Shown here: positions 1,699 through 10,004 of the stretch, in pieces | How positions within the stretch are numbered: position 1 is the stretch's first letter | Layout of the letters: each line of letters starts with the position of its first letter | Origin: an uncultured virus (IMG/VR IMGVR_UViG_3300046786_000599) | Lineage: Duplodnaviria > Heunggongvirae > Uroviricota > Caudoviricetes | IMG/VR virus record: IMGVR_UViG_3300046786_000599 | Strand: one strand, 5' to 3' | Length of the DNA stretch: 20,000 bases | Translations under genes and position numbers: made by a program | Notes under the pieces: model-generated | Told to the model about the DNA's origin: nothing | What the model saw: only the letters and a program-made list of their open reading frames with translations | Databases searched by the model: none

Positions 1699-2841
1699 AT
1701 GAATTATAGACAATTTTTTATCGAAGAATTAGAACAATCATTGAAATTTGATATTCAATCAGTTGGTTATCACAACAACCAACACGATTTGGTGTTGACT
1801 GCTAAAACAGAAGATGGCAACGTAGTTGGCAAAATAGAATATAATGAGTATCAAGGAAAACCACATATTAGTTGGATAGAAGTTGAACCTTTGTTAAGAA
1901 AACAAGGTATTGGAAAAAAAATGATTAATTTTTTACAAAACCAATATCCTGACGAAGAAATTAAAATTGGAGGTACTACTGATTTAGGAACTAAATTTTT
2001 TGATAAGTTACCAAAAACGTTTGAAAAGAACGAAAGGTATGATACGTTAGTAAAACGATTAAAATCTTTACAAAACGCTGAAAATAGATTAAATAAGTAT
2101 GTTCAGAAAACAGGAATTTCTAGTGAAAGAATTTCAAATTTATACAATGATATAAGTGATGAAATATGGCAAATAGAACAGGAGCTACAAGATATGTCTC
2201 CAGGAAAAACAAAATTTAAAGAAACCTTTATATCTGAAGATTATCCTCCCAACTGGAATATCGAAACTTTCAAATCTATCAAATCATTCTCTAAGAGAGT
2301 TGCTTATTGCAATCAAAACCTACAACGTCTTGCTTCGGGGTCTTCCAGAATAGCATACAAAATAGATGAGGAAAAAGTTTTGAAGTTGGCTAAGAATAAA
2401 AAAGGCATTGCTCAAAACAGCGTAGAAAGAGACTGGTATGTTCAACAATCATACGGAAATATTGTTGCTAAGGTTTATGATGTCGATGAAAATGACTTAT
2501 GGTTAGAAATGGAATTGGCCAAGAAACTCACGCCTAGCCGGTTTAAAGCGTTAGTCGGAGAACATGTAGACGATGTTGGGGATTATCTATTGAACAGAGA
2601 TGACGAAAATAACGGTAAAAGACGAGTTCGAGCAGAAGATCCAATTGTGAAATTAGTATTGGATAAAAACGAATGGGTCCAACAAATTTACTCTCTCTGT
2701 CGTGAAGTTGACCTTCAGCCAGGAGATTTCGGTCGAATTTCCAGTTATGGTGAAGTAATCAGAGATAATAAACCAGCCGTGGTTATAATTGATTTGGGTC
2801 TTAGCAAATCTGTTTGGAACGATTTCTATGGAGTAACTTAA
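1699..2841 (+). CDS. GNAT acetyltransferase-like domain + coiled coil + protein-kinase-like domain fusion
   Basis: GNAT motif A (HISWIEVEPLLRKQGIGKKMI); kinase-like elements LASGSSRIAY (Gly loop), VLKLAK, helix-C Glu (NSVE), GDFGRISSYG, VIIDLG (DFG-like). Confidence 0.7.
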   Translation: MNYRQFFIEELEQSLKFDIQSVGYHNNQHDLVLTAKTEDGNVVGKIEYNEYQGKPHISWIEVEPLLRKQGIGKKMINFLQNQYPDEEIKIGGTTDLGTKFFDKLPKTFEKNERYDTLVKRLKSLQNAENRLNKYVQKTGISSERISNLYNDISDEIWQIEQELQDMSPGKTKFKETFISEDYPPNWNIETFKSIKSFSKRVAYCNQNLQRLASGSSRIAYKIDEEKVLKLAKNKKGIAQNSVERDWYVQQSYGNIVAKVYDVDENDLWLEMELAKKLTPSRFKALVGEHVDDVGDYLLNRDDENNGKRRVRAEDPIVKLVLDKNEWVQQIYSLCREVDLQPGDFGRISSYGEVIRDNKPAVVIIDLGLSKSVWNDFYGVT

Positions 2842-2847
2842 AATAAG

Positions 2848-2876
2848 TTGAATTTCTTTTCTAACTGTGTGATAAT
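2848..2876 (+). promoter_or_regulatory. Sigma70-type promoter (leaderless) for the macrodomain gene
   Basis: TTGAAT (2848-2853), 17 nt, GATAAT (2871-2876), 7 nt, ATG 2884. Confidence 0.55.
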
Positions 2877-2883
2877 GTTAAAC

Positions 2884-3444
2884 ATGATTACACATCGTAT
2901 AGGAAATCTAGTTAAAGAACCTCTTGATGCTTTTATTCACCAGGCAAATTGTTTTAACACAATGGGTTCTGGTGTAGCAAGGGAAATCAAAGACACTTAT
3001 CCAGAAGTTTACTATGCGGATTGTAGAACTAACAAAGGATCTCTGAATAAACTTGGAACTTTTTCCTATGCTAGAACGTTGGATGGAAAAATTGGTTATA
3101 ATTTATATAGCCAATATGACTATGGTTATGATGGCAAATTGTATACCAATTATGAAGCGATGAGACGGGGTTTGGAAAAAATATTAGAACATGTAAAGAC
3201 ACATTTGAAGTCCGATGCTAAAATTGGCATTCCGTGTCGAATGGGGTGTGCTAGGGGAGGCGGCGACTGGAATGAAGTTCTAAAAATTATTAGAGAAGTT
3301 TTTGAAAACGAAACATTGGAGATAGTTATTTGTGAATTTAAAGAATATTCTCCTCAAGAAGAAGATTTCAAAAATAAGTTACGAGCGGCTTATAAAAAAT
3401 CTGAGTTGTTAGGATTAACCGAAAGTGATACAAATGAAAGTTGA
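2884..3444 (+). CDS. Macrodomain protein (Appr-1''-p processing / ADP-ribose hydrolase family)
   Basis: GNL...FIHQANCFNTMGSGVAREIK...NLYSQY...IGIPCRMGCARGGGDW: classic phage macrodomain motifs. ATG 2884 preferred over TTG 2848, which is the -35 box. Confidence 0.92.
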   Translation: MITHRIGNLVKEPLDAFIHQANCFNTMGSGVAREIKDTYPEVYYADCRTNKGSLNKLGTFSYARTLDGKIGYNLYSQYDYGYDGKLYTNYEAMRRGLEKILEHVKTHLKSDAKIGIPCRMGCARGGGDWNEVLKIIREVFENETLEIVICEFKEYSPQEEDFKNKLRAAYKKSELLGLTESDTNES

Positions 3445-3598
3445 TGAAACAAATATTGATCTAAACAGTTTTATACATGAAATTAAAGAACGGCTACCTA
3501 ATTTTGAAATTAATGTTTTAAGATTGGGTGAAAATTTTGTAAAACCAAAGACGTTTTCTGAGTGGATGGAACTCTTTGTAAGATGGAATAACACATGA
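3434..3598 (+). CDS. Hypothetical protein (54 aa)
   Basis: Below ORF-track cutoff: MKVDETNIDLNSFIHEIKERLPNFEINVLRLGENFVKPKTFSEWMELFVRWNNT*; overlaps the previous stop and has an ATGA overlap with the next gene. Confidence 0.7.
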   Translation: MKVDETNIDLNSFIHEIKERLPNFEINVLRLGENFVKPKTFSEWMELFVRWNNT

Positions 3599-3870
3599 TA
3601 CCCGCCGGACTTTGGCCACACATTTCTATAGATGAAATAAACTCTTTATCGGAAGATGAAGCGTTTATGCTTTTGTATATTTGTAATGTATGGGCTCCTA
3701 TAAGACCTCCAGTTCCTTCCGAAAACGACCAACATCCAATTACTTTAAAATTGATACGGTATGCTCGGCGAGAAGCAATACTTGATAGAGTTAAACAGGC
3801 AGAATCCGTTGTAAAAGAAGAACACAAGGAAATATACAATGGACTTAAAACGAAGTTGAAAGTACCATAA
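3595..3870 (+). CDS. Hypothetical protein
   Basis: 91-aa ORF, ATGA-coupled, co-oriented in the operon. Confidence 0.75.
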   Translation: MIPAGLWPHISIDEINSLSEDEAFMLLYICNVWAPIRPPVPSENDQHPITLKLIRYARREAILDRVKQAESVVKEEHKEIYNGLKTKLKVP

Positions 3871-3874
3871 CTAT

Positions 3875-4126
3875 ATGAAAAATAGAATGAGTATAGAAAT
3901 TGTAGGACATACCACAGAACTTAGAGAGTTAATTCATATTCTAAAATGTATTCAAAAGTGTGGTGAACGAGGAACCCATAGAACATTTCAAGTTAGTGTT
4001 GATGGTGACGGATCTGGTCGATTATTGTTTTTGTATAAGAATGAGTTTGGAGAAGATGAATTTTTCCCAACGGATGATATTGATTTAGATAAAGAAGAAT
4101 TGAGAAACCTTTCTATCGGGGAATAA
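3875..4126 (+). CDS. Hypothetical phage protein (VDGDGSG motif)
   Basis: 83-aa ORF with 4-nt gaps to its neighbours. Confidence 0.75.
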   Translation: MKNRMSIEIVGHTTELRELIHILKCIQKCGERGTHRTFQVSVDGDGSGRLLFLYKNEFGEDEFFPTDDIDLDKEELRNLSIGE

Positions 4127-4130
4127 AGAA

Positions 4131-4373
4131 ATGAACGTAAAAGTTTCAGATAATGTTAAAAATCTTAAAGAAAATGTTTATGACTGGCATAATAGGTATT
4201 TAGAAATATTAAGAAAACAAAAGGAACATACAATTATGAATGTTTTAGGAAATAACAATCAAATTATTACGGGAAATAATAACATTCAAAAAATAAAGTC
4301 ATCTAAAAAATGGATTTATATTTCGATTTCTATACCGATAATTAGTTATTTATTTTATTTGATATTATTCTAA
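4131..4373 (+). CDS. Small membrane-anchored hypothetical protein
   Basis: GNNNQ-like repeats followed by a hydrophobic C-terminal helix (WIYISISIPIISYLFYLILF). Confidence 0.65.
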   Translation: MNVKVSDNVKNLKENVYDWHNRYLEILRKQKEHTIMNVLGNNNQIITGNNNIQKIKSSKKWIYISISIPIISYLFYLILF

Positions 4374-4403
4374 CGCTTTATGTTCTAACGTAATATTTAT
4401 TGT
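4368..4403 (+). promoter_or_regulatory. Upstream motif of microprotein-HEG cassette 1: TTCTAACG direct repeat + TATTTATT
   Basis: TTCTAACG at 4368-4375 and 4383-4390; TATTTATT at 4394-4401, 2 nt before ATG 4404. Confidence 0.5.
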
Positions 4404-4553
4404 ATGGGTCGCAAAAAATTAAATAGAAACAAAGAAGAAATCCGAGAACAAAATCGGTTGCGTGCTCGTAAATATTATGAGAGACATAAAGACAAGATCA
4501 AACAAAACAGAATGCGAAGATATTGGGAAAGTTTGGAAGAGAAATTGTTCTAA
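4404..4553 (+). CDS. Basic 49-aa 'MGRKK' microprotein overlapping the downstream homing endonuclease
   Basis: MGRKKLNRNKEEIREQNRLRARKYYERHKDKIKQNRMRRYWESLEEKLF*; homolog at 8877-9038 (14/42 identities, gapless). Confidence 0.75.
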   Translation: MGRKKLNRNKEEIREQNRLRARKYYERHKDKIKQNRMRRYWESLEEKLF

Positions 4554-5181
4554 GTGTGGCGTTGAGATGGTTTATAATCACCAATCCAATTTTTGTCGAA
4601 GTAAGAGAACCAATGCCAAGTGTATTCGGTGTCGTCACGACGGCCAACTTATAGGACGAGTTCAGTCGGAAGAAGAAAAAGAAAAACGGGCTAAAAAACT
4701 TAGAGGAAAGAAAAGAAGTTTAGAATCGAGAAAAAAATACTCCGAATCTAAAATTGGAAAAAACAATCCGCGGTTTGGAAAACACACGTTAAAATCGGAA
4801 GAACATAGACGGAAAATTAGACTATCCTGCATTGAAACTATTAAAAAACGTTTAGAATCAGTTGGGAAAACTATGCGTCCGAGTTTTAACATTAATGCAT
4901 GTAAAGCAATAGATGAATATGGAAAATTGCATGGATATAACTTTCAACACGCAATGAATGGCGGAGAATATCATATTAAAGAATTGGGATATTGGTTGGA
5001 CGGTTATGATGAAGACAAAAACACAGTTATTGAATTTTTTGAAAACAACCACTGGCACAGAAAAAACAAAAATAAAGATTTAAACCGAGGGAAAGAGATA
5101 GTTGACTTTCTGGGGTGTGAGTTTATAATACTAAGAGAACAGATTGGAGGCATTTATTTACCAGAATATTTTTTGCGATAA
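4477..5181 (+). CDS. Free-standing homing endonuclease-like protein: Cys-rich N-terminus, NUMOD3-like repeats, Vsr/DUF559/Hef-like nuclease domain
   Basis: CSKC...CIRC; repeats QSEEEKEKRA, RSLESRKKYSESKIGKNNPRFGK, KSEEHRRKIR; C-terminal GEYHI...YWLDGYD...VIEFFENNHWH...KD. ATG 4477 preferred over GTG 4462. Confidence 0.78.
   Translation: MRDIKTRSNKTECEDIGKVWKRNCSKCGVEMVYNHQSNFCRSKRTNAKCIRCRHDGQLIGRVQSEEEKEKRAKKLRGKKRSLESRKKYSESKIGKNNPRFGKHTLKSEEHRRKIRLSCIETIKKRLESVGKTMRPSFNINACKAIDEYGKLHGYNFQHAMNGGEYHIKELGYWLDGYDEDKNTVIEFFENNHWHRKNKNKDLNRGKEIVDFLGCEFIILREQIGGIYLPEYFLR
5102..5150 (+). promoter_or_regulatory. Sigma70-type promoter and SD for DNA polymerase, inside the HEG coding sequence
   Basis: TTGACT (5102-5107), 16 nt, TATAAT (5124-5129); GGAGG at 5146-5150. 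Confidence 0.7.
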
Positions 5182-7822
5182 GAAGAATGATTTAGTATAT
5201 CTTTGGGATGACGAACAGGGAATGCGGTCTTTTAAATTCCAAAAGTATGCTTACAGAAGACGTACTGGCGGTCAGTATAAATCAATGTATGGTGATGATT
5301 TAGAGAAAACTATTCATTTCGACCCCCGTGATCAAGATGTTTTTGAAGGCGATGTTCCTCTCGAAACGAGAATTTTGATTGATGGTTATGAAAATTCAGA
5401 TGAACCGTCCAAAGGACATAAGGTTTTAATTTTCGACATCGAGGTTAGTTCCGAAGGTGGATTTCCTGTAATTGAAACTGCTGATAAGGAAATTACCGCT
5501 ATTGCTTTATACGACAAAGTTGCTGATCAGTATCACGCTTTGATTGTAGATAAGGATTACAAAATCAAAGATGAAGATAAAGGCAACGTTTTCATCCGAT
5601 CTTATCAGAATGAAGAGTCGCTTTTAAAAGCATTTCTCAATAAGTGGGAAGAAATTCAACCAACAATTGTAAGCGGTTGGAACATTGACTATTTTGATGT
5701 GCCTTATATTCACAACAGAATTAAGGTTGTATTGGGTGAAAGAGATGCTGGTAGACTGTCTCCAATTGGAATTTGTTATATGAACAAATTCAATAAAAAA
5801 ATGGTGGTTGCTGGAGTTTCTTGTTTGGATTACATTTTACTTTATAAGAAGTTTATTGGAAAAAACCGACCATCTTATGCTTTGGGTCAGATTGGTAAGT
5901 TAGAAGTAAAGATGGATAAAATCGAGTATAAAGGTTCTCTAAATACTTTGTATAAAGAAGATATCCAAAAGTATGTAGATTACAACTTGAACGACGTTTA
6001 TATTGTTAAAGCATTGGATGATAAATTCAAGTATATTGAACTTGCCAGAGAGATTTGCCATGTTGGACATGTTCCTTATGAATGGTTTCATATGTCATCA
6101 AGGTATCTTGAAGGGGCAATCCTAATGGATTTGAGGCGGAATAAGTTGGTTGCTCCGAACAAACCTATCAATGGAGCAGAAGAACTTGAACAGAAGGAGG
6201 CTGACGGTGAAGAGGGGTTTGAAGGAGCATATGTTAAACGTCCTGTTCCTGGTCGGTATGATTGGTTGTATGATTTGGACCTTGCATCAATGTATCCAAA
6301 TATCGTCATTACACTCAATATCAGTCCGGAAACCAAAGTCGGAAAAGTTCGTTCTGTGGAACTTACTCCAGAAGGAGGAAAGTATTTCACGGAAAAACTA
6401 AAAGGACGTTATGCTGAGTTAGATGAAAAAGATCAAAAAAACTTATCCGAGTTTGATTATGTTAAAATGCATATCAGTGATTTTGATTCCGACTGTTTTT
6501 CTCAGAATTATATTTCTAATGTAGATTTGGGTGGTTCAAAATATACAATTGAGGATTTCAAGAAACTGCTCACCGAAGAAAAACTTGGAATTAGTAGTAA
6601 TGGTGTAATTTACGTAAGTCAACAACAAGGCGTTATTCCTAAGTTGTTGAGCCAGTGGTTCAAACAACGTAAGGAAATGCGTCAACTTTCCAAGAAATAC
6701 CATGATGAAGATAATAAAGAATTGGAAGAGTATTACGACAGAAAACAATATACTTGGAAAATCATGCTTAACTCCATGTATGGTGGCCTTGGTTTGCCGG
6801 TTTTCCGTTTTTATGATGTTGACAATGCTGCTGCTGTAACAGTGACAGGTGTGACAATTATTCAAACGACTGGTAAACTGATTAATCAGTATTATAGGAA
6901 CGTTTGTAAGACAAATGAGGATTATGTGGTTTATCAAGATACCGATTCTTGTTTCGTTTCTGCGGTTCCTATTGTTAAGGTTAGAAATCCTAATATGGAT
7001 GTTTCTGCTACTGAAAGTAATGAAGAAATGGTAAAAGCAATTCTCGGAGTTGCTTCCGAAATTCAGGATTTCATTAATAAAACTTATACAGTAATGGCAA
7101 AAAGAATGTTCAATGTAGATAAACACACATTGGAGATTAAACAAGAAATCATATCAACCACAGGGTTCTGGCTTGCTAAGAAACGATATGCTCAATGGAG
7201 AATCAATGAAAACGGTAAATACATCAAGGATGATAAACACAAACTTGAAGTAAAAGGAATTGACGTTGTTAGAACAAGTTTTCCTGCTAGGTTTAGGTCA
7301 TTTTTAGAAGAGATATTAAAAGACATTTTGGCTAAAAAGCCTAAAGAAGAAATTGATGAAAAGATTCTTGCTTTTAGAAAAGGATTGAAAGATTTATCTG
7401 TGACGGATGTTGCTAAAAATACATCCGTCAAATTTTTGAGTCAAGATGGCAAAACCAATTATGACCCCAAATCAAGACATCCATTTCATATTGTTTCTGG
7501 AACACCAGCTCAAGCAAAAGCTGCTATATACTACAACGATTTGTTAAAGAAATTCAATCTACAAGTTAAAGTAGAAAAAATCCATAGCGGTAGTAAAATT
7601 AAATGGGTTTATTTAAAAGGCAACCCACATTGTATGGATTGTTTAGCGTTTAAAGCAGATGGAACCGATCCAGATAAAATAATGGAAATCATTAATACTT
7701 ACATAGATAAGAAGGGTTTGTACGAACATGAATTGAGAGGTAAATTAATGGATTTCTATACAATTCTCGGATGGAATTTTCCATCGGCAGATGCTAGAAA
7801 ATCATTGGAGTTTTTCTCATGA
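5144..7822 (+). CDS. polB: Family B DNA polymerase (T4 gp43-like); true start may be ATT 5156
   Basis: Exo I FDIEV, Exo II GWNIDYFD, Exo III YNLND; polymerase motifs DLASMYP, KIMLNSMYG, YQDTDS, KKRYA. No intein seen. Confidence 0.97.
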   Translation: MEAFIYQNIFCDKKNDLVYLWDDEQGMRSFKFQKYAYRRRTGGQYKSMYGDDLEKTIHFDPRDQDVFEGDVPLETRILIDGYENSDEPSKGHKVLIFDIEVSSEGGFPVIETADKEITAIALYDKVADQYHALIVDKDYKIKDEDKGNVFIRSYQNEESLLKAFLNKWEEIQPTIVSGWNIDYFDVPYIHNRIKVVLGERDAGRLSPIGICYMNKFNKKMVVAGVSCLDYILLYKKFIGKNRPSYALGQIGKLEVKMDKIEYKGSLNTLYKEDIQKYVDYNLNDVYIVKALDDKFKYIELAREICHVGHVPYEWFHMSSRYLEGAILMDLRRNKLVAPNKPINGAEELEQKEADGEEGFEGAYVKRPVPGRYDWLYDLDLASMYPNIVITLNISPETKVGKVRSVELTPEGGKYFTEKLKGRYAELDEKDQKNLSEFDYVKMHISDFDSDCFSQNYISNVDLGGSKYTIEDFKKLLTEEKLGISSNGVIYVSQQQGVIPKLLSQWFKQRKEMRQLSKKYHDEDNKELEEYYDRKQYTWKIMLNSMYGGLGLPVFRFYDVDNAAAVTVTGVTIIQTTGKLINQYYRNVCKTNEDYVVYQDTDSCFVSAVPIVKVRNPNMDVSATESNEEMVKAILGVASEIQDFINKTYTVMAKRMFNVDKHTLEIKQEIISTTGFWLAKKRYAQWRINENGKYIKDDKHKLEVKGIDVVRTSFPARFRSFLEEILKDILAKKPKEEIDEKILAFRKGLKDLSVTDVAKNTSVKFLSQDGKTNYDPKSRHPFHIVSGTPAQAKAAIYYNDLLKKFNLQVKVEKIHSGSKIKWVYLKGNPHCMDCLAFKADGTDPDKIMEIINTYIDKKGLYEHELRGKLMDFYTILGWNFPSADARKSLEFFS

Positions 7823-7974
7823 TATATAAAAGCATAGACGAGTTGGACGAATTAACTTTGGAAGACATTGAAGAGTTCGATAGCGTTCTTATATGGGACG
7901 TGAGTGAACAAAAAACAAAAAAGGTGTCAATACAAACTTTAATGGATTATTTAAAAATGATTAATAGTCAATAA
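7819..7974 (+). CDS. Acidic hypothetical protein (51 aa)
   Basis: ATGA overlap with the polymerase stop: MIYKSIDELDELTLEDIEEFDSVLIWDVSEQKTKKVSIQTLMDYLKMINSQ*. Confidence 0.7.
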   Translation: MIYKSIDELDELTLEDIEEFDSVLIWDVSEQKTKKVSIQTLMDYLKMINSQ

Positions 7975-7983
7975 TAAATTGAC
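7953..7983 (+). repeat. 31-bp direct repeat, copy 1 (contains hairpin GTCAAT-AATAA-ATTGAC and the start of a -35 box)
   Basis: AAAAATGATTAATAGTCAATAATAAATTGAC; 30/31 identical to 8220-8250. Confidence 0.9.
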
Positions 7984-8006
7984 GTTATTTGTGTATAGTG
8001 TAAACT
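7979..8006 (+). promoter_or_regulatory. Sigma70-type promoter (leaderless)
   Basis: TTGACG (7979-7984), 16 nt, TAAACT (8001-8006), 7 nt, ATG 8014. Confidence 0.6.
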
Positions 8007-8013
8007 ATTGACA

Positions 8014-8241
8014 ATGAAAATTAATTATGGATTGATAGCACTTCAACACGTAAAAGGTGTAGATTTTAGAATTTTACATTTTTGTGGATATGAGGAACCA
8101 CCAACAGATTTTGATAAAACTTCTTTAATGAAAGAATTAAAATTTGATCCGGAATTTGGATTAATTAATGAAGAATTTATTATAATAGAAGCAGAACCAC
8201 GTTTAGTAAAAGAGTATTCAAAAATGATTAATGGTCAATAA
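8014..8241 (+). CDS. Hypothetical phage protein (75 aa) flanked by direct repeats
   Basis: MKINYGLIAL...ILHFCGYEEPP...DPEFGL...KMINGQ*. Confidence 0.75.
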   Translation: MKINYGLIALQHVKGVDFRILHFCGYEEPPTDFDKTSLMKELKFDPEFGLINEEFIIIEAEPRLVKEYSKMINGQ

Positions 8242-8250
8242 TAAATTGAC
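8220..8250 (+). repeat. 31-bp direct repeat, copy 2
   Basis: AAAAATGATTAATGGTCAATAATAAATTGAC. Confidence 0.9.
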
Positions 8251-8260
8251 TAATTAGTTG

Positions 8261-8917
8261 TTAAATAACAATCCACCCTTTACAGTTGTTGCTTCTTTTA
8301 TGGATTAAGTTGTAAAGGTTTGCTTTATCAAAACTGTATTTTTTAGAAAAGTCGGAACGTATTCCTATAAATGTCTTTTTGGTTATTACATTTAGAAATG
8401 TAAACATTGTTTTGTTAGGAGTTCCCATTTTTAATCTTGTTTCATTTGAATGCGTTTTTCCAAAATTTGGATTTTTTGAACCTATATATCTACCTTTCAT
8501 CAGATTGCTTTGTCGTTGTTTTTGTTCTTCTGTATGTCTGAACTCAAAATGGATTTTTAATTTTTTATGAGTTTTGCTCATTTTTTCTTTTGTGGTTTTG
8601 TTATGAACTCTGTTTCTCATTGGAGCGATGGCATCAAAACAAATATTATAAGTTTTGTCTGGTTCTGATTTTGCTATATCCAAATATTTTTGTTCAATTA
8701 ATAACAAATCGTTTGACTGAACATTTTCTATTACAGAATATGACCATACCGATTTTTCATACTTATTCCAGGCATTTTGGAGTTTCGGATTATTATGTCG
8801 GTTTTTATTTAAAAGCCGTTTGTGGTCATAAAATCTTTTTTGTATATTACTACTGCTACCAACATAGTAATTTCCGTTAGTTTCGTTGATTATTTTGTAT
8901 ATTCCGCTTATTTTCAT
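8261..8917 (-). CDS. GIY-YIG homing endonuclease (Seg/I-TevI-like) with NUMOD3 repeats and C-terminal HTH-like module
   Basis: SGIYKIIN...YYVGSS.NIQKRF..H...HNNPKLQNAWNKY...EQKYLD...YN; HNKTTKEKMS, HTEEQKQRQS, GSKNPNFGKTHSNETRLKM. Confidence 0.93.
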   Translation of the reverse strand: MKISGIYKIINETNGNYYVGSSSNIQKRFYDHKRLLNKNRHNNPKLQNAWNKYEKSVWSYSVIENVQSNDLLLIEQKYLDIAKSEPDKTYNICFDAIAPMRNRVHNKTTKEKMSKTHKKLKIHFEFRHTEEQKQRQSNLMKGRYIGSKNPNFGKTHSNETRLKMGTPNKTMFTFLNVITKKTFIGIRSDFSKKYSFDKANLYNLIHKRSNNCKGWIVI

Positions 8918-9038
8918 AATATCTTTTTAATGCTTTGTTTCGTTGTTTTTTTACATTTTTCCAGTAATAACACATTTGTCTTTTTCTTCTAGCAATTAAT
9001 TTTTCTGTATCGGTCAGATATTTCTTTTTTCTTCCCAT
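8877..9038 (-). CDS. Basic 53-aa 'MGRKK' microprotein overlapping the GIY-YIG gene
   Basis: MGRKKKYLTDTEKLIARRKRQMCYYWKNVKKQRNKALKRYYENKRNIQNNQRN*; homolog of 4404-4553. Confidence 0.75.
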   Translation of the reverse strand: MGRKKKYLTDTEKLIARRKRQMCYYWKNVKKQRNKALKRYYENKRNIQNNQRN

Positions 9039-9087
9039 ATTAATAAATAATATTTAGAATTATAAAAGTAGAGAAAAAGTAGAGAAA
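9039..9087 (-). promoter_or_regulatory. Upstream motif of microprotein-HEG cassette 2: 11-bp tandem repeat + TTCTAA..TATTTATT
   Basis: Plus strand AAAAGTAGAGA at 9064-9074 and 9075-9085; minus strand TTCTAAATATTATTTATTAAT directly before ATG 9038. Confidence 0.5.
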
Positions 9088-9112
9088 GATTTAATTTTAA
9101 TTTACCAAAAGG

Positions 9113-9141
9113 TTGACTTTTTGTTGCGTTGTTGTTATGAT
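9113..9141 (+). promoter_or_regulatory. Near-consensus sigma70-type promoter with extended -10
   Basis: TTGACT (9113-9118), 17 nt, TATGAT (9136-9141) preceded by TGn; AAGGA SD-like sequence before ATG 9166. Confidence 0.75.
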
Positions 9142-9165
9142 GGTTTTTAACAAAAGGATTTTAAT

Positions 9166-9600
9166 ATGAAAATAGATTTAGAAGAAGTTGAAGCTAAAAT
9201 GTTGGAACTCAAGATTGACCCGATGAAGGTTAATCAAGTTGTAACCGAGTTGGAAAAAGTAGTTGAAGAATTGGCAGATGAACGAAAAGCTGAAGCAGGT
9301 CCAAAGGCAAAGTGGGAATTTGTTATAGTTCTCAATGACAAAGATGGTTATTTGAAGGGCAAGGAAATTGCTGGATGGGTAGTTCAGAAGCCAGAAGAAG
9401 ATGATGCTAATCTTGTACTTTCTAAATTGGCAGATGCTGCTAAGTCACAGAATGAAGTGACAAAGAAAAAGGCTAACAGAATTAACGATCTGGTTTCTTT
9501 ATTTGAACACCTTAAATCCAAGTTCACTAAGGAAAAGAAGGTTAGAGTTAAGACCAAGGAACTCACTAGAGTTCTTATTACAGATGGGAATATCGTATGA
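9166..9600 (+). CDS. Hypothetical protein
   Basis: 144-aa ORF behind promoter and SD; ATGA-coupled to the next gene. Confidence 0.85.
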   Translation: MKIDLEEVEAKMLELKIDPMKVNQVVTELEKVVEELADERKAEAGPKAKWEFVIVLNDKDGYLKGKEIAGWVVQKPEEDDANLVLSKLADAAKSQNEVTKKKANRINDLVSLFEHLKSKFTKEKKVRVKTKELTRVLITDGNIV

Positions 9601-10004
9601 ATGAAGAAGATGTTGGTTTAAAGAAAGAAATGAATGAAGCTTTTCATACCATGAAGGATAATACACAGGTCAATAAAGATGAAAAACAACTTCGAATTGC
9701 TAAGTTGAACATGCCTGCTACCGTTGTTGATTTTTTGATGGACCATTATGGGTTTTTTGATTTGGTAGAACTTAATACACTTACCCTTTATATTTTAAAA
9801 ACCTTCGGTCATATAGAAAATGATGGTTTTAAATTCGCCATACATAAAACGACAGAAGGCAAAACTGAAGCGTATGAACTTGATATTCACGACTTGATTG
9901 CTAAGTTTAGAATTCAGTTGGCTCAATCTTTAAATCAAAATAAACTATATGACCCTGAAATAAAGATTGAACATAAGGAGAAAAATGAAAAAGATAGTGT
10001 GTGA
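9597..10004 (+). CDS. Hypothetical protein
   Basis: 135-aa ORF in operon. Confidence 0.8.
   Translation: MNEEDVGLKKEMNEAFHTMKDNTQVNKDEKQLRIAKLNMPATVVDFLMDHYGFFDLVELNTLTLYILKTFGHIENDGFKFAIHKTTEGKTEAYELDIHDLIAKFRIQLAQSLNQNKLYDPEIKIEHKEKNEKDSV

Follow-up and report, generated by a model that had tools for sequence, protein, structure and literature searches.

The stretch of DNA considered here (20,000 nucleotides of the uncultured virus record IMGVR_UViG_3300046786_000599, referred to below as the window) carries two small open reading frames (ORFs), P0001 at 4404–4553 (+) and P0002 at 8877–9038 (−), encoding very basic peptides of 49 and 53 amino acids (aa), each of which overlaps the 5' end of a homing endonuclease gene read in another frame. 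On the evidence of profile searches, the two peptides belong to one microprotein family, and the module that they represent is shared by homing endonucleases of at least six architectures, at their 5' end. This module probably controls expression of the nuclease. A fuller reading, proposed tentatively and with slightly less than an even chance of being right, is that each locus is a free-standing cassette made of a portable front end and an exchangeable nuclease, in which the microprotein is a DNA-binding autoregulator acting on repeats upstream of it. The locus of P0001 is called cassette 1 and that of P0002 cassette 2; their features are listed in Table 1.

Both ORFs had been described, at these positions and with these lengths, in an earlier note on this DNA, which also aligned the two peptides without gaps, and both observations hold. 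The gapless alignment, at the residues named in the note, has 14 of 43 positions identical (BLASTP, E 0.027); such pairwise similarity is by itself weak evidence for peptides rich in K, R and Y. A hidden Markov model (HMM) of the family, built from 64 distinct peptides of other loci with the window left out, was run against the 380 stop-to-stop segments of at least 25 aa in the window. P0001 and P0002 were its sole matches, the third-ranked segment scoring 7.0 bits. The note had also suggested a shuffled K/R/Y-rich control, and 1000 composition-preserving shuffles of P0002 reached at most 10.8 bits, far under the 29.4 bits of the real peptide. Because an HMM made without the window singles out both peptides and the shuffles score far lower, P0001 and P0002 are, by profile score, homologous. 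A six-frame motif scan found no third family copy in the window. P0001 is a typical family member, of the class in which the microprotein is the first ORF after the box described below. P0002 belongs to a subtype (MGRKKKY...ARR.RQM.YY) with P0156, P0157 and P0123 as relatives, and its tail (ENKRNIQNN...) is the N-terminus of the GIY-YIG nuclease read off-frame.

A scan of viral contigs with an alignment of both peptides yielded 101 confirmed relatives, the best 80 of which were kept and represent 75 distinct viral loci. An exhaustive profile search over 1.84 billion representative proteins (E ≤ 1e-3) placed the family in 265 clusters at 50% identity; among the 150 clusters listed, 144 contain proteins of no more than 100 aa. 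The microprotein ORF opens with ATG-GGN-MGN-AAR-AAR in all 75 loci, giving the arm MGRKK(L/K), and it is a stand-alone ORF of 45–58 aa in 72 of them (it is longer in L038, L047 and L048). No indels were found in codons 1–41 across 68 non-redundant copies. A nuclease-associated Pfam domain is present in 58 of the 75 overlapping downstream ORFs: 34 match GIY-YIG (LEM-3-type included), eight NUMOD3 only, five Vsr or DUF559, five HNH_3, five Treble-clef, CapR or DUF723, and one the MTES_1575 REase. Two more have only weak zinc-ribbon matches and 15 have none, several of these 15 matching PHROGs for endonuclease VII or HNH proteins or aligning with the zinc-ribbon nuclease family of cassette 1. Near-identical front ends are found on unrelated nucleases, of the GIY-YIG type in L009 and L013 and of the zinc-ribbon type in L016. 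The enrichment for endonucleases that the earlier note had proposed as a check is thus borne out, as are its suggestions that the leader is common to several nuclease superfamilies and that nucleases are swapped on a portable module.

In P0155, P0046 and L047 the module is fused in frame to a nuclease, so the microprotein domain would seem to work alongside a nuclease. Several other observations concern unusual family members. Partners of the HNH/EndoVII type (L078 at 2469–3275, P0046, L060 and L072) have more "YY...NK" repeats in the nuclease frame past the junction, so that the microprotein resembles the opening units of a more extended repeat array in these enzymes. P0156 (256 aa) has a P0002-type N-terminus in frame with a GIY-YIG domain that lacks its first ~35 residues, GIY motif included, and is apparently a decayed cassette. 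P0068 and P0091 (232 and 267 aa) begin with MGRKKLY and MGRPKLY, repeat the motif once more and have a eukaryotic-looking composition. One 354-kb phage record, G001 (rated 100% complete), which holds L012, L029, L066 and L071, has 12 matches to the microprotein family; 12 copies rival the homing endonuclease load of T4. In cultured phages (50,697 records), tblastn with P0001 and the L019 peptide gave no match at E ≤ 1, although the low-complexity filter of BLAST may have masked these K/R-rich queries, so that the result falls short of demonstrating absence. Cultured phages do contain relatives of the fused form P0155, but their alignment with it begins at residue 29. Among bacterial and archaeal genomes, one pattern scan was empty and a DNA pattern led to one 6-kb contig of a metagenome-assembled genome, L078. 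Full-text literature searches (supplements lying outside the search) returned no description of the family or of a dedicated microprotein of homing endonucleases, the string "MGRKK" occurring in nine unrelated papers.

The peptide itself appears to be what selection maintains. Over codons 2–41, in 23 phylogenetically independent pairs, the ratio of nonsynonymous to synonymous substitution rates (dN/dS) is 0.18 in the microprotein frame, 0.84 in the +1 frame and 1.09 in the +2 frame. In the microprotein frame it is 0.16 in the 36 loci in which the small ORF is nested in the nuclease ORF and 0.24 in the 27 loci in which it comes first. M1 and R3 occur in every one of 148 sequences, and G2, K4, Y25 and Y40 in at least 90% of them. 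The arm is kept even where the module is internal to a protein (P0138), which argues for a protein role and not merely a start-site signal. By this substitution pattern, the microprotein is translated and selected as a protein, in agreement with the dN/dS below 1 that the earlier note had asked for. The AlphaFold2 prediction made with the 148 sequences consists of an extended arm (residues 1–9) and a single helix (residues 10–48), with a mean predicted local distance difference test (pLDDT) score of 92.4; the composition is very basic, the arm MGRKKLNRT being followed by a long helix with RYY and RYW motifs. Searches for known relatives found little. Pfam returned nothing but a weak match to DUF7516 in 12 of the 148 members, with no match to bZIP (even at E ≤ 1) or MADS. 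The sole match of a PDB profile search was at chance level (E 0.8), leaving no PDB sequence relative, and Foldseek against the PDB gave no match with the predicted fold, a single helix being uninformative anyway. Matches in the ESM Atlas were limited to unnamed viral clusters. No match to antitoxin folds (CcdA, HicB, RHH) was found in Pfam or PHROG, and the predicted fold is a single helix. The earlier note had offered three options for the small ORF. A pure translational leader is hard to square with selection at the protein level and with the in-frame fused forms, and a DNA-binding helix fits best of the three, given the co-varying repeats upstream, the binding itself remaining putative.

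The nuclease is read in a different frame over the same DNA. The earlier note had the small ORFs merely precede the nucleases, but at both window loci the nuclease ORF, in the +1 frame, already starts inside the small ORF; measured from ATG 4477 the shared stretch is 77 nt, and from ATG 8917 it is 41 nt. This overlap, the avoidance of stop codons in the +1 frame and the nesting of the small ORF inside the nuclease ORF in about half of the loci had all been overlooked. Among 77 rows (75 loci and the two window copies), the long ORF that crosses the microprotein stop uses the +1 frame in 72; of the others, three use +2 and two are fused. The preference for +1 has its origin in the conserved codon pairs N-R and Y-E, which inevitably create stops in +2. 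Conservation changes frame abruptly: it follows frame 0 as far as RYW/RYY (codon 41) and +1 immediately afterwards, where the conserved sequence reads ISGIYKI... or W-K-R-N-C-P-x-C-G...; the C-terminal tails of the microproteins are nuclease N-termini read off-frame. Of 63 non-redundant +1 loci, all but L052, which offers only GTG or TTG, have an ATG in the +1 frame past the last +1 stop and ahead of the junction. Within codons 1–41 of the 60 loci without an ATG at the junction, 19 stops were observed in +1, against 141.6 ± 7.1 expected from synonymous resampling (2000 runs, minimum 118). Stops in +2 are mildly depleted (239 against 314 expected), and in the three loci with a junction ATG, cassette 2 among them, +1 stops are not depleted (seven against 8.1 expected). 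Leucine before a codon starting with A is encoded by CTT or CTC in 35 of 51 cases at codon 6 and in 42 of 64 elsewhere, the background being 18.5% in nuclease genes and 21% before C. Since this bias is found before A but not before C, the depletion of +1 stops depends on context. Because the +1 ATG is near-universal, +1 stops are purged and leucine codons are chosen by context, the +1 frame is, on these counts, translated through the overlap from its own ATG, and the nuclease is made from that ATG and not by frameshifting at the junction.

This ATG lies 5–140 nt 5' of the microprotein ORF in 36 of 67 non-redundant copies, in which the microprotein is consequently nested in the nuclease ORF, and inside the microprotein ORF in 27 of 67, including both window cassettes; overlaps thus range from 41 nt to the entire small ORF. 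By the same codon evidence, the two frames of nested loci are dual-coding, although the amino acid sequence of the nuclease leader is not under selection. In cassette 1, ATG 4477 is the first ATG past the last +1 stop (4420–4422), and its offset of +73 is identical in the homologous cassette L018. In cassette 2, ATG 8917 arises inside the Y-Y-E codons of P0002, with a +1 stop four codons 5' of it. Contigs from four other studies were compared over positions 3500–9700 of the window, and no indel was seen in any part of this range, cassette 1 included, so the two-frame split is not an assembly error.

An element with a constant architecture stands upstream of the cassettes. In nearly all loci, an alignment anchored on the box gives a repeat, TTTTAT, a second repeat, 2–3 nt, a TATTTAT box and the first ATG. 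Among 68 non-redundant loci, 53 have that ATG 2–7 nt past the box, a spacing found at 23% of other TATTTAT sites; the ATG is that of the microprotein in 25 loci and a +1-frame ATG in 39. The two 8-mers, 15 nt apart, match at 5.97 of eight positions within a locus and at 3.94 between loci, the maximum reached in 10,000 permutations being 4.51. In the window, TTCTAACG and TTCTCTAC occur twice each, solely at their own cassettes (1 and 2, respectively). Sequences resembling a Shine-Dalgarno site are found at other window genes and none at the cassette starts. The repeats are unlike one another among four cassettes of one 354-kb phage (L012, L029, L066 and L071), and their sequence tracks the subtype of the peptide, not the type of nuclease; TTCTAATG, for example, is common to L009 (GIY-YIG) and L016 (zinc-ribbon type). 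Residue 21 of the peptide is D with CGTCG/CGAC repeat cores (10 of 10 loci), L or V with TAATG (four of four), Y with CAACG (three of three), M with TTACG (two of two) and S with TCAC-type cores (17 of 23). Two other views of the element were discarded. It is not a general phage promoter, because in the window it occurs solely at the cassettes; a loose version of the pattern has 17 matches in the 354-kb phage with its 12 family copies, against 10 for a control, and five of the 17 are directly 5' of family ORFs. The box was also considered as the reverse of the T4 late promoter TATAAATA, a motif found once in the window against 3.2 expected, and this was dropped.

These features suggest how the proposed autoregulation might work. 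The front end consists, in order, of two 8-bp direct repeats ~15 bp apart, the TATTTAT box, the first ATG 2–7 nt on and a microprotein ORF of 45–58 codons. The box would be a promoter yielding a leaderless or near-leaderless mRNA, and the microprotein would be a minimal DNA-binding helix that sits on the two repeats beside the box and thereby autoregulates the cassette, as a repressor or an activator, taking in trans the part that the DNA-binding domain plays within I-TevI. The two overlapping start sites would compete, which would hold the nuclease at a low level. A more specific version is that each cassette is an orthogonal regulator–operator unit, in which a single helix of ~50 residues reads a doubled 8-bp site beside a leaderless promoter and positions near residue 21 set the specificity; this is rather doubtful. 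If it were true, orthogonality would explain how one genome can carry many cassettes (12 in one 354-kb phage) that do not interfere with one another, and a regulator and the leader of a nuclease would come from one stretch of DNA read in two frames. The peptide would then be a minimal sequence-specific DNA-binding protein of a new kind, and homing endonucleases would have their first control module that is both dedicated and transferable.

Several points weigh against the idea of a DNA-binding autoregulator. No relatives of the peptide with known function were found, by sequence or fold, in Pfam, the PDB, the ESM Atlas or with Foldseek, and its DNA binding is putative. The co-variation of peptide subtype and repeat could be explained by linkage, the two being 20–60 nt apart, and it is not one-to-one, an S at residue 21 being accompanied by TCAC cores in some loci and by TGACG cores in others. 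Because the repeats are direct, without a palindrome, a bZIP-like dimer on a dyad is excluded, and zipper heptads are not evident. The promoter function of the box and the leaderless mRNA are presumed from geometry. In cassette 2, the repeat spacing is atypical (11 nt) and the proximal copy is degenerate.

Four other explanations were weighed; in order of decreasing probability, these are a partner binding the nuclease, an RNA-binding regulator, a frameshift fusion and a purely cis-acting ORF. The first, which is unlikely, holds that the microprotein is a protein partner of the nuclease, the two coming from a single mRNA in a fixed ratio; it would serve either as a subunit that clamps DNA and can detach, or as a brake of the inhibitor or antitoxin-like kind. 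The in-frame fusions are a classic hint of one complex, co-translation from overlapping frames would couple the amounts of the two products, and antitoxin-like small genes have been proposed as regulators of multi-copy homing endonucleases in large aquatic phages (PMC12619734). This would nevertheless require a single conserved peptide to recognize no fewer than six unrelated nuclease folds; near the junction the nucleases have nothing in common, none of the partners approaches the peptide in conservation, and the co-varying upstream repeats are left unexplained. A complex prediction for a window nuclease with the peptide scored 0.00, which weighs neither way.

A little less probable again is a role for the microprotein as an arginine-rich RNA binder, with its own mRNA or the ribosome as target, by which it would tune translation of the overlapping nuclease frame. 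The basic arm and helix predicted for the microprotein are resembled by the arginine-rich motifs of lambda N and HIV Rev, nucleases start without a Shine-Dalgarno sequence, and the mRNA of cassette 2 folds somewhat better than its shuffles (z −2.15; 3 of 200 shuffles). Cassette 1, however, has no excess structure (z −0.11), no conserved hairpin was seen, and the dN/dS values in the overlap fit protein constraint only. The co-varying element also lies 5' of the first ATG and of the box, so it is probably outside the transcript. With these two z scores and a dN/dS pattern of protein-level constraint, RNA structure was rejected as the cause of the conservation.

Markedly less probable is a fusion by programmed +1 frameshifting or slippage just after codon 41, in which the peptide would supply the nuclease with its N-terminal DNA-binding domain and the 50-aa product would be no more than the unshifted by-product. 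Such a fusion would be in keeping with the near-universal +1 relation and with conservation that changes frame exactly past RYW/RYY; L038 and P0155 resemble the same junction minus one base, in frame, and YY repeats continue in the nuclease frame past the junction in partners of the HNH/EndoVII type (L078, P0046). Frameshifting at the junction, however, gives no reason for an open +1 frame upstream of it, where 19 stops stand against 142 expected; only the three loci that possess a junction ATG have about as many as chance predicts. A usable +1 ATG exists in 62 of 63 loci, and codons 41–42 vary (TGG GAA, TGG AAA, TAT GAA, TAT CAT, TAT TTC and others). Slippage on the A-run at codons 3–5 is not general either, being blocked in 16 loci, cassette 1 included, by a +1 stop directly after it. 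A programmed +1 frameshift gene was thus rejected on the nuclease's own start, the purged +1 stops and the lack of a conserved slippery or pause site. Least credible of all is a small ORF that acts only in cis, as an upstream or overlapping ORF whose ribosome traffic or coupling limits the nuclease while the peptide is functionless: free-standing endonuclease genes of T4 often start in an upstream ORF (overlaps of 11–24 bp) and would be read at low frequency by coupling or scanning (PMC2988022), and L059 has a classic ATGA stop–start overlap, but a dN/dS of 0.18 and near-invariant residues rule out a leader peptide free to vary, the arm is kept even internally and fused forms exist, and the ratio is 0.16 in the 36 nested loci, where the small ORF cannot act as an upstream ORF.

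The cassettes behave as mobile units. In L001, whose family-B DNA polymerase (PolB) is 77% identical to that of the window, both cassettes are absent, and in L002/L018 (PolB 50% identical) a family cassette of the DUF559 type occupies the same site upstream of PolB, its 3' end overlapping the PolB start. The segment of cassette 2 that is missing from the contig of another sample (X5) runs from just past the nuclease stop codon to 15 nt into the ORF at 9166–9600; in two further samples (X3 and X4), positions 7984–9180 are replaced by 58 other letters (joint 7983->9181). This presence/absence polymorphism at a fixed site between related genomes is that of a free-standing homing endonuclease cassette and, as far as these contigs allow, the cassettes are discrete insertions. 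Over cassette 1 (4227–5301), pieces of 279–744 nt from contigs of the four other studies have no differences from the window. Pieces of the PolB region (5302–7944) are mostly 1.3–2.4% different, two pieces of X5 being identical. Identity in cassette 1 against divergence in PolB would be compatible with a cassette that spread recently and carried a co-conversion tract along. One X3 contig follows the window through P0001 and continues with unrelated sequence from 4557, 4 nt past the stop; this may represent a further cassette, in which a front end nearly identical to that of cassette 1 is joined to some other nuclease.

The two window nucleases match homing endonuclease families, through GIY-YIG and NUMOD3 in cassette 2, and NUMOD3 and phrog_314 ("homing endonuclease") in cassette 1. 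The statement in the earlier note that P0002 leads a GIY-YIG nuclease is correct (8261–8917, −; E 3e-9), whereas the Vsr/Hef-like nuclease said to follow P0001 can be upheld through homologues only, NUMOD3 being the sole Pfam match of the cassette-1 protein itself. That protein aligns over its full length with siblings bearing a zinc ribbon and a C-terminal domain matching DUF559 or Vsr. It has no Vsr or DUF559 match of its own; the siblings L003 and L018 are above the DUF559 cut-off (25.0 and 27.3 bits, against 20.6), and L004, L006 and L008 match Vsr with scores under the cut-off. In cassette 2, a long-range stem (8842–9038, −) pairs the C-Y-Y-W codons with the S-S-S-N codons of the nuclease and encloses the nuclease start; nothing comparable was seen in cassette 1.

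The window is AT-rich, phage-like DNA (32% G+C), and its genes include a T4-type PolB, a PD-(D/E)XK exonuclease, a clamp-loader-like AAA protein and DNA methylases (Pfam/PHROG). No cultured phage is near-identical to it, the closest cultured PolB being that of Microcystis phage Mel-JY01 (40.8% identity); near-identical DNA is carried by freshwater, wastewater and sludge metagenomes from several studies. The PolB region is the likely target region of cassette 1, and the last 38 nt of the cassette-1 nuclease overlap the PolB start. At 5144–5160, the window has ATT where L001 has the ATG of PolB, with GGAGG 5 nt upstream, and the sole listed start is TTG 5144; insertion of cassette 1 may have altered the initiation codon of the polymerase. 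The 80-aa ORF 5' of cassette 1 (4131–4373) has a hydrophobic C-terminus and no family match, and its stop codon lies inside the first repeat copy.

Table 1. Positions of the two cassettes, their upstream elements and adjoining features in the window.
Feature	Position	Strand	Details
Microprotein ORF P0001	4404..4553	+	49 aa, MGRKKLNRN...RKYY...RRYW...; family HMM 72.7 bits (E 4e-22); pLDDT 92
Microprotein ORF P0002	8877..9038	-	53 aa; divergent member; family HMM 28.9 bits (E 2e-8)
Homing endonuclease ORF, cassette 1	4477..5181	+	+1 frame relative to P0001; alternative start GTG 4462
Zinc ribbon, cassette 1	first Cys codon 4546	+	invariant CxxC...CxxC in sibling nucleases
NUMOD3, cassette 1	about 4705-4821	+	Pfam
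C-terminal PD-(D/E)XK-like domain, cassette 1	about 4987-5055 onward	+	DUF559 or Vsr matches in aligned siblings
GIY-YIG homing endonuclease, cassette 2	8261..8917	-	Pfam GIY-YIG E 3e-9 and NUMOD3 E 5e-8; +1 frame
GIY-YIG domain, cassette 2	about 8666-8905	-	Pfam
NUMOD3, cassette 2	about 8426-8539	-	Pfam
Direct repeat copy 1, cassette 1, TTCTAACG	4368..4375	+	holds stop codon of ORF 4131-4373; in register with family element
Direct repeat copy 2, cassette 1, TTCTAACG	4383..4390	+	15 nt after copy 1; CTTTATG between copies
TATTTAT box, cassette 1	4394..4400	+	3 nt before ATG; promoter-like; no Shine-Dalgarno between
TATTTAT box, cassette 2	9043..9049	-	4 nt before ATG 9038
Repeat element, cassette 2	9052..9086	-	TTCTCTAC at 9079-9086 and 9068-9075 (11-nt period), TTTTAT, then third copy
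Degenerate third copy, cassette 2, TTCTAAAT	9052-9059	-	
Family-B DNA polymerase (PolB)	5144..7822	+	Pfam/PHROG; neighbour of cassette 1
Segment missing from another sample's contig (X5)	8264..9180		joint 8263->9181

Homing endonucleases are dangerous to their carriers and, to our knowledge, the restraint of free-standing ones is understood for only a few T4 genes. The presence of one conserved front end on hundreds of uncultured-phage endonucleases of unrelated catalytic families looks like a general solution to control that travels with the element, and the question of control could be tested with a 150-bp module and a 50-aa peptide. The loci are also a clean natural case of dual coding, in which one frame is selected as protein and the other only kept open, so that stop purging can be measured, and they pose a problem for annotation, gene callers either missing the small ORF or adding a spurious N-terminal extension to the nuclease. 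If the peptide were a sequence-specific binder with a specificity co-varying with its site, the family would provide a ready-made set of very small DNA-binding parts.

Basic-region helices are known from the basic region of bZIP proteins, the N-terminal arm of MADS proteins and the arginine-rich motif of lambda N. The predicted microprotein fold may be likened to them in its basic N-terminal arm followed by a long R/K/N-rich helix, and the repeat cores, which often contain ACG(T), would recall bZIP half-sites; with no detectable sequence relation to bZIP or MADS, no leucine zipper and direct-repeat sites, this is an analogy only. NUMOD modules of homing endonucleases, reportedly described by Sitbon and Pietrokovski in 2003, are likewise short DNA-binding modules shuffled among GIY-YIG and HNH endonucleases, and one of them, NUMOD3 (Pfam PF07460), is present in both window nucleases. 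NUMODs, however, are in-frame parts of the nuclease, whereas the microprotein, which has no Pfam model, is encoded apart from the nuclease and out of frame with it in 72 of 75 loci. The nearest published idea comes from the large aquatic "moraphages", in which genes for CcdA/HicB-like antitoxins are paired with PacI-like homing endonucleases and regulation of the nuclease is suggested by the authors (PMC12619734). Both systems combine a small gene for a putative DNA-binding regulator with a multi-copy homing endonuclease in one module. The moraphage genes are adjacent and a single nuclease family is involved, whereas here the genes overlap, nucleases of at least six architectures take part and the peptide is of another protein family and fold, with no Pfam antitoxin match.

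I-TevI, the endonuclease of the T4 td intron, represses its own gene by sequence-specific DNA binding at an operator that overlaps its promoter (PMC2988022). A homing endonuclease gene that limits itself through DNA binding is also the working model proposed here, by analogy. In I-TevI, the binder is the nuclease's own DNA-binding domain and the operator is like the homing site, whereas the putative binder of the cassettes is a separate peptide of 50 aa and its sites are tandem direct repeats that do not track nuclease type. The seg and mob genes of T4 have their start codon inside the preceding ORF without a good ribosome-binding site, which suggests low-level initiation (PMC2988022). Nuclease starts in the cassettes are placed in the same way, and the overlapping starts may add a translational limitation like that proposed for the T4 genes. 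The upstream ORF of a seg or mob gene is an ordinary phage gene and the overlap is of 1–24 bp (PMC2988022), whereas in the microprotein cassettes a dedicated, conserved ORF travels with the endonuclease, the overlap extends from 41 nt to the whole ORF and stops are purged from the second frame.

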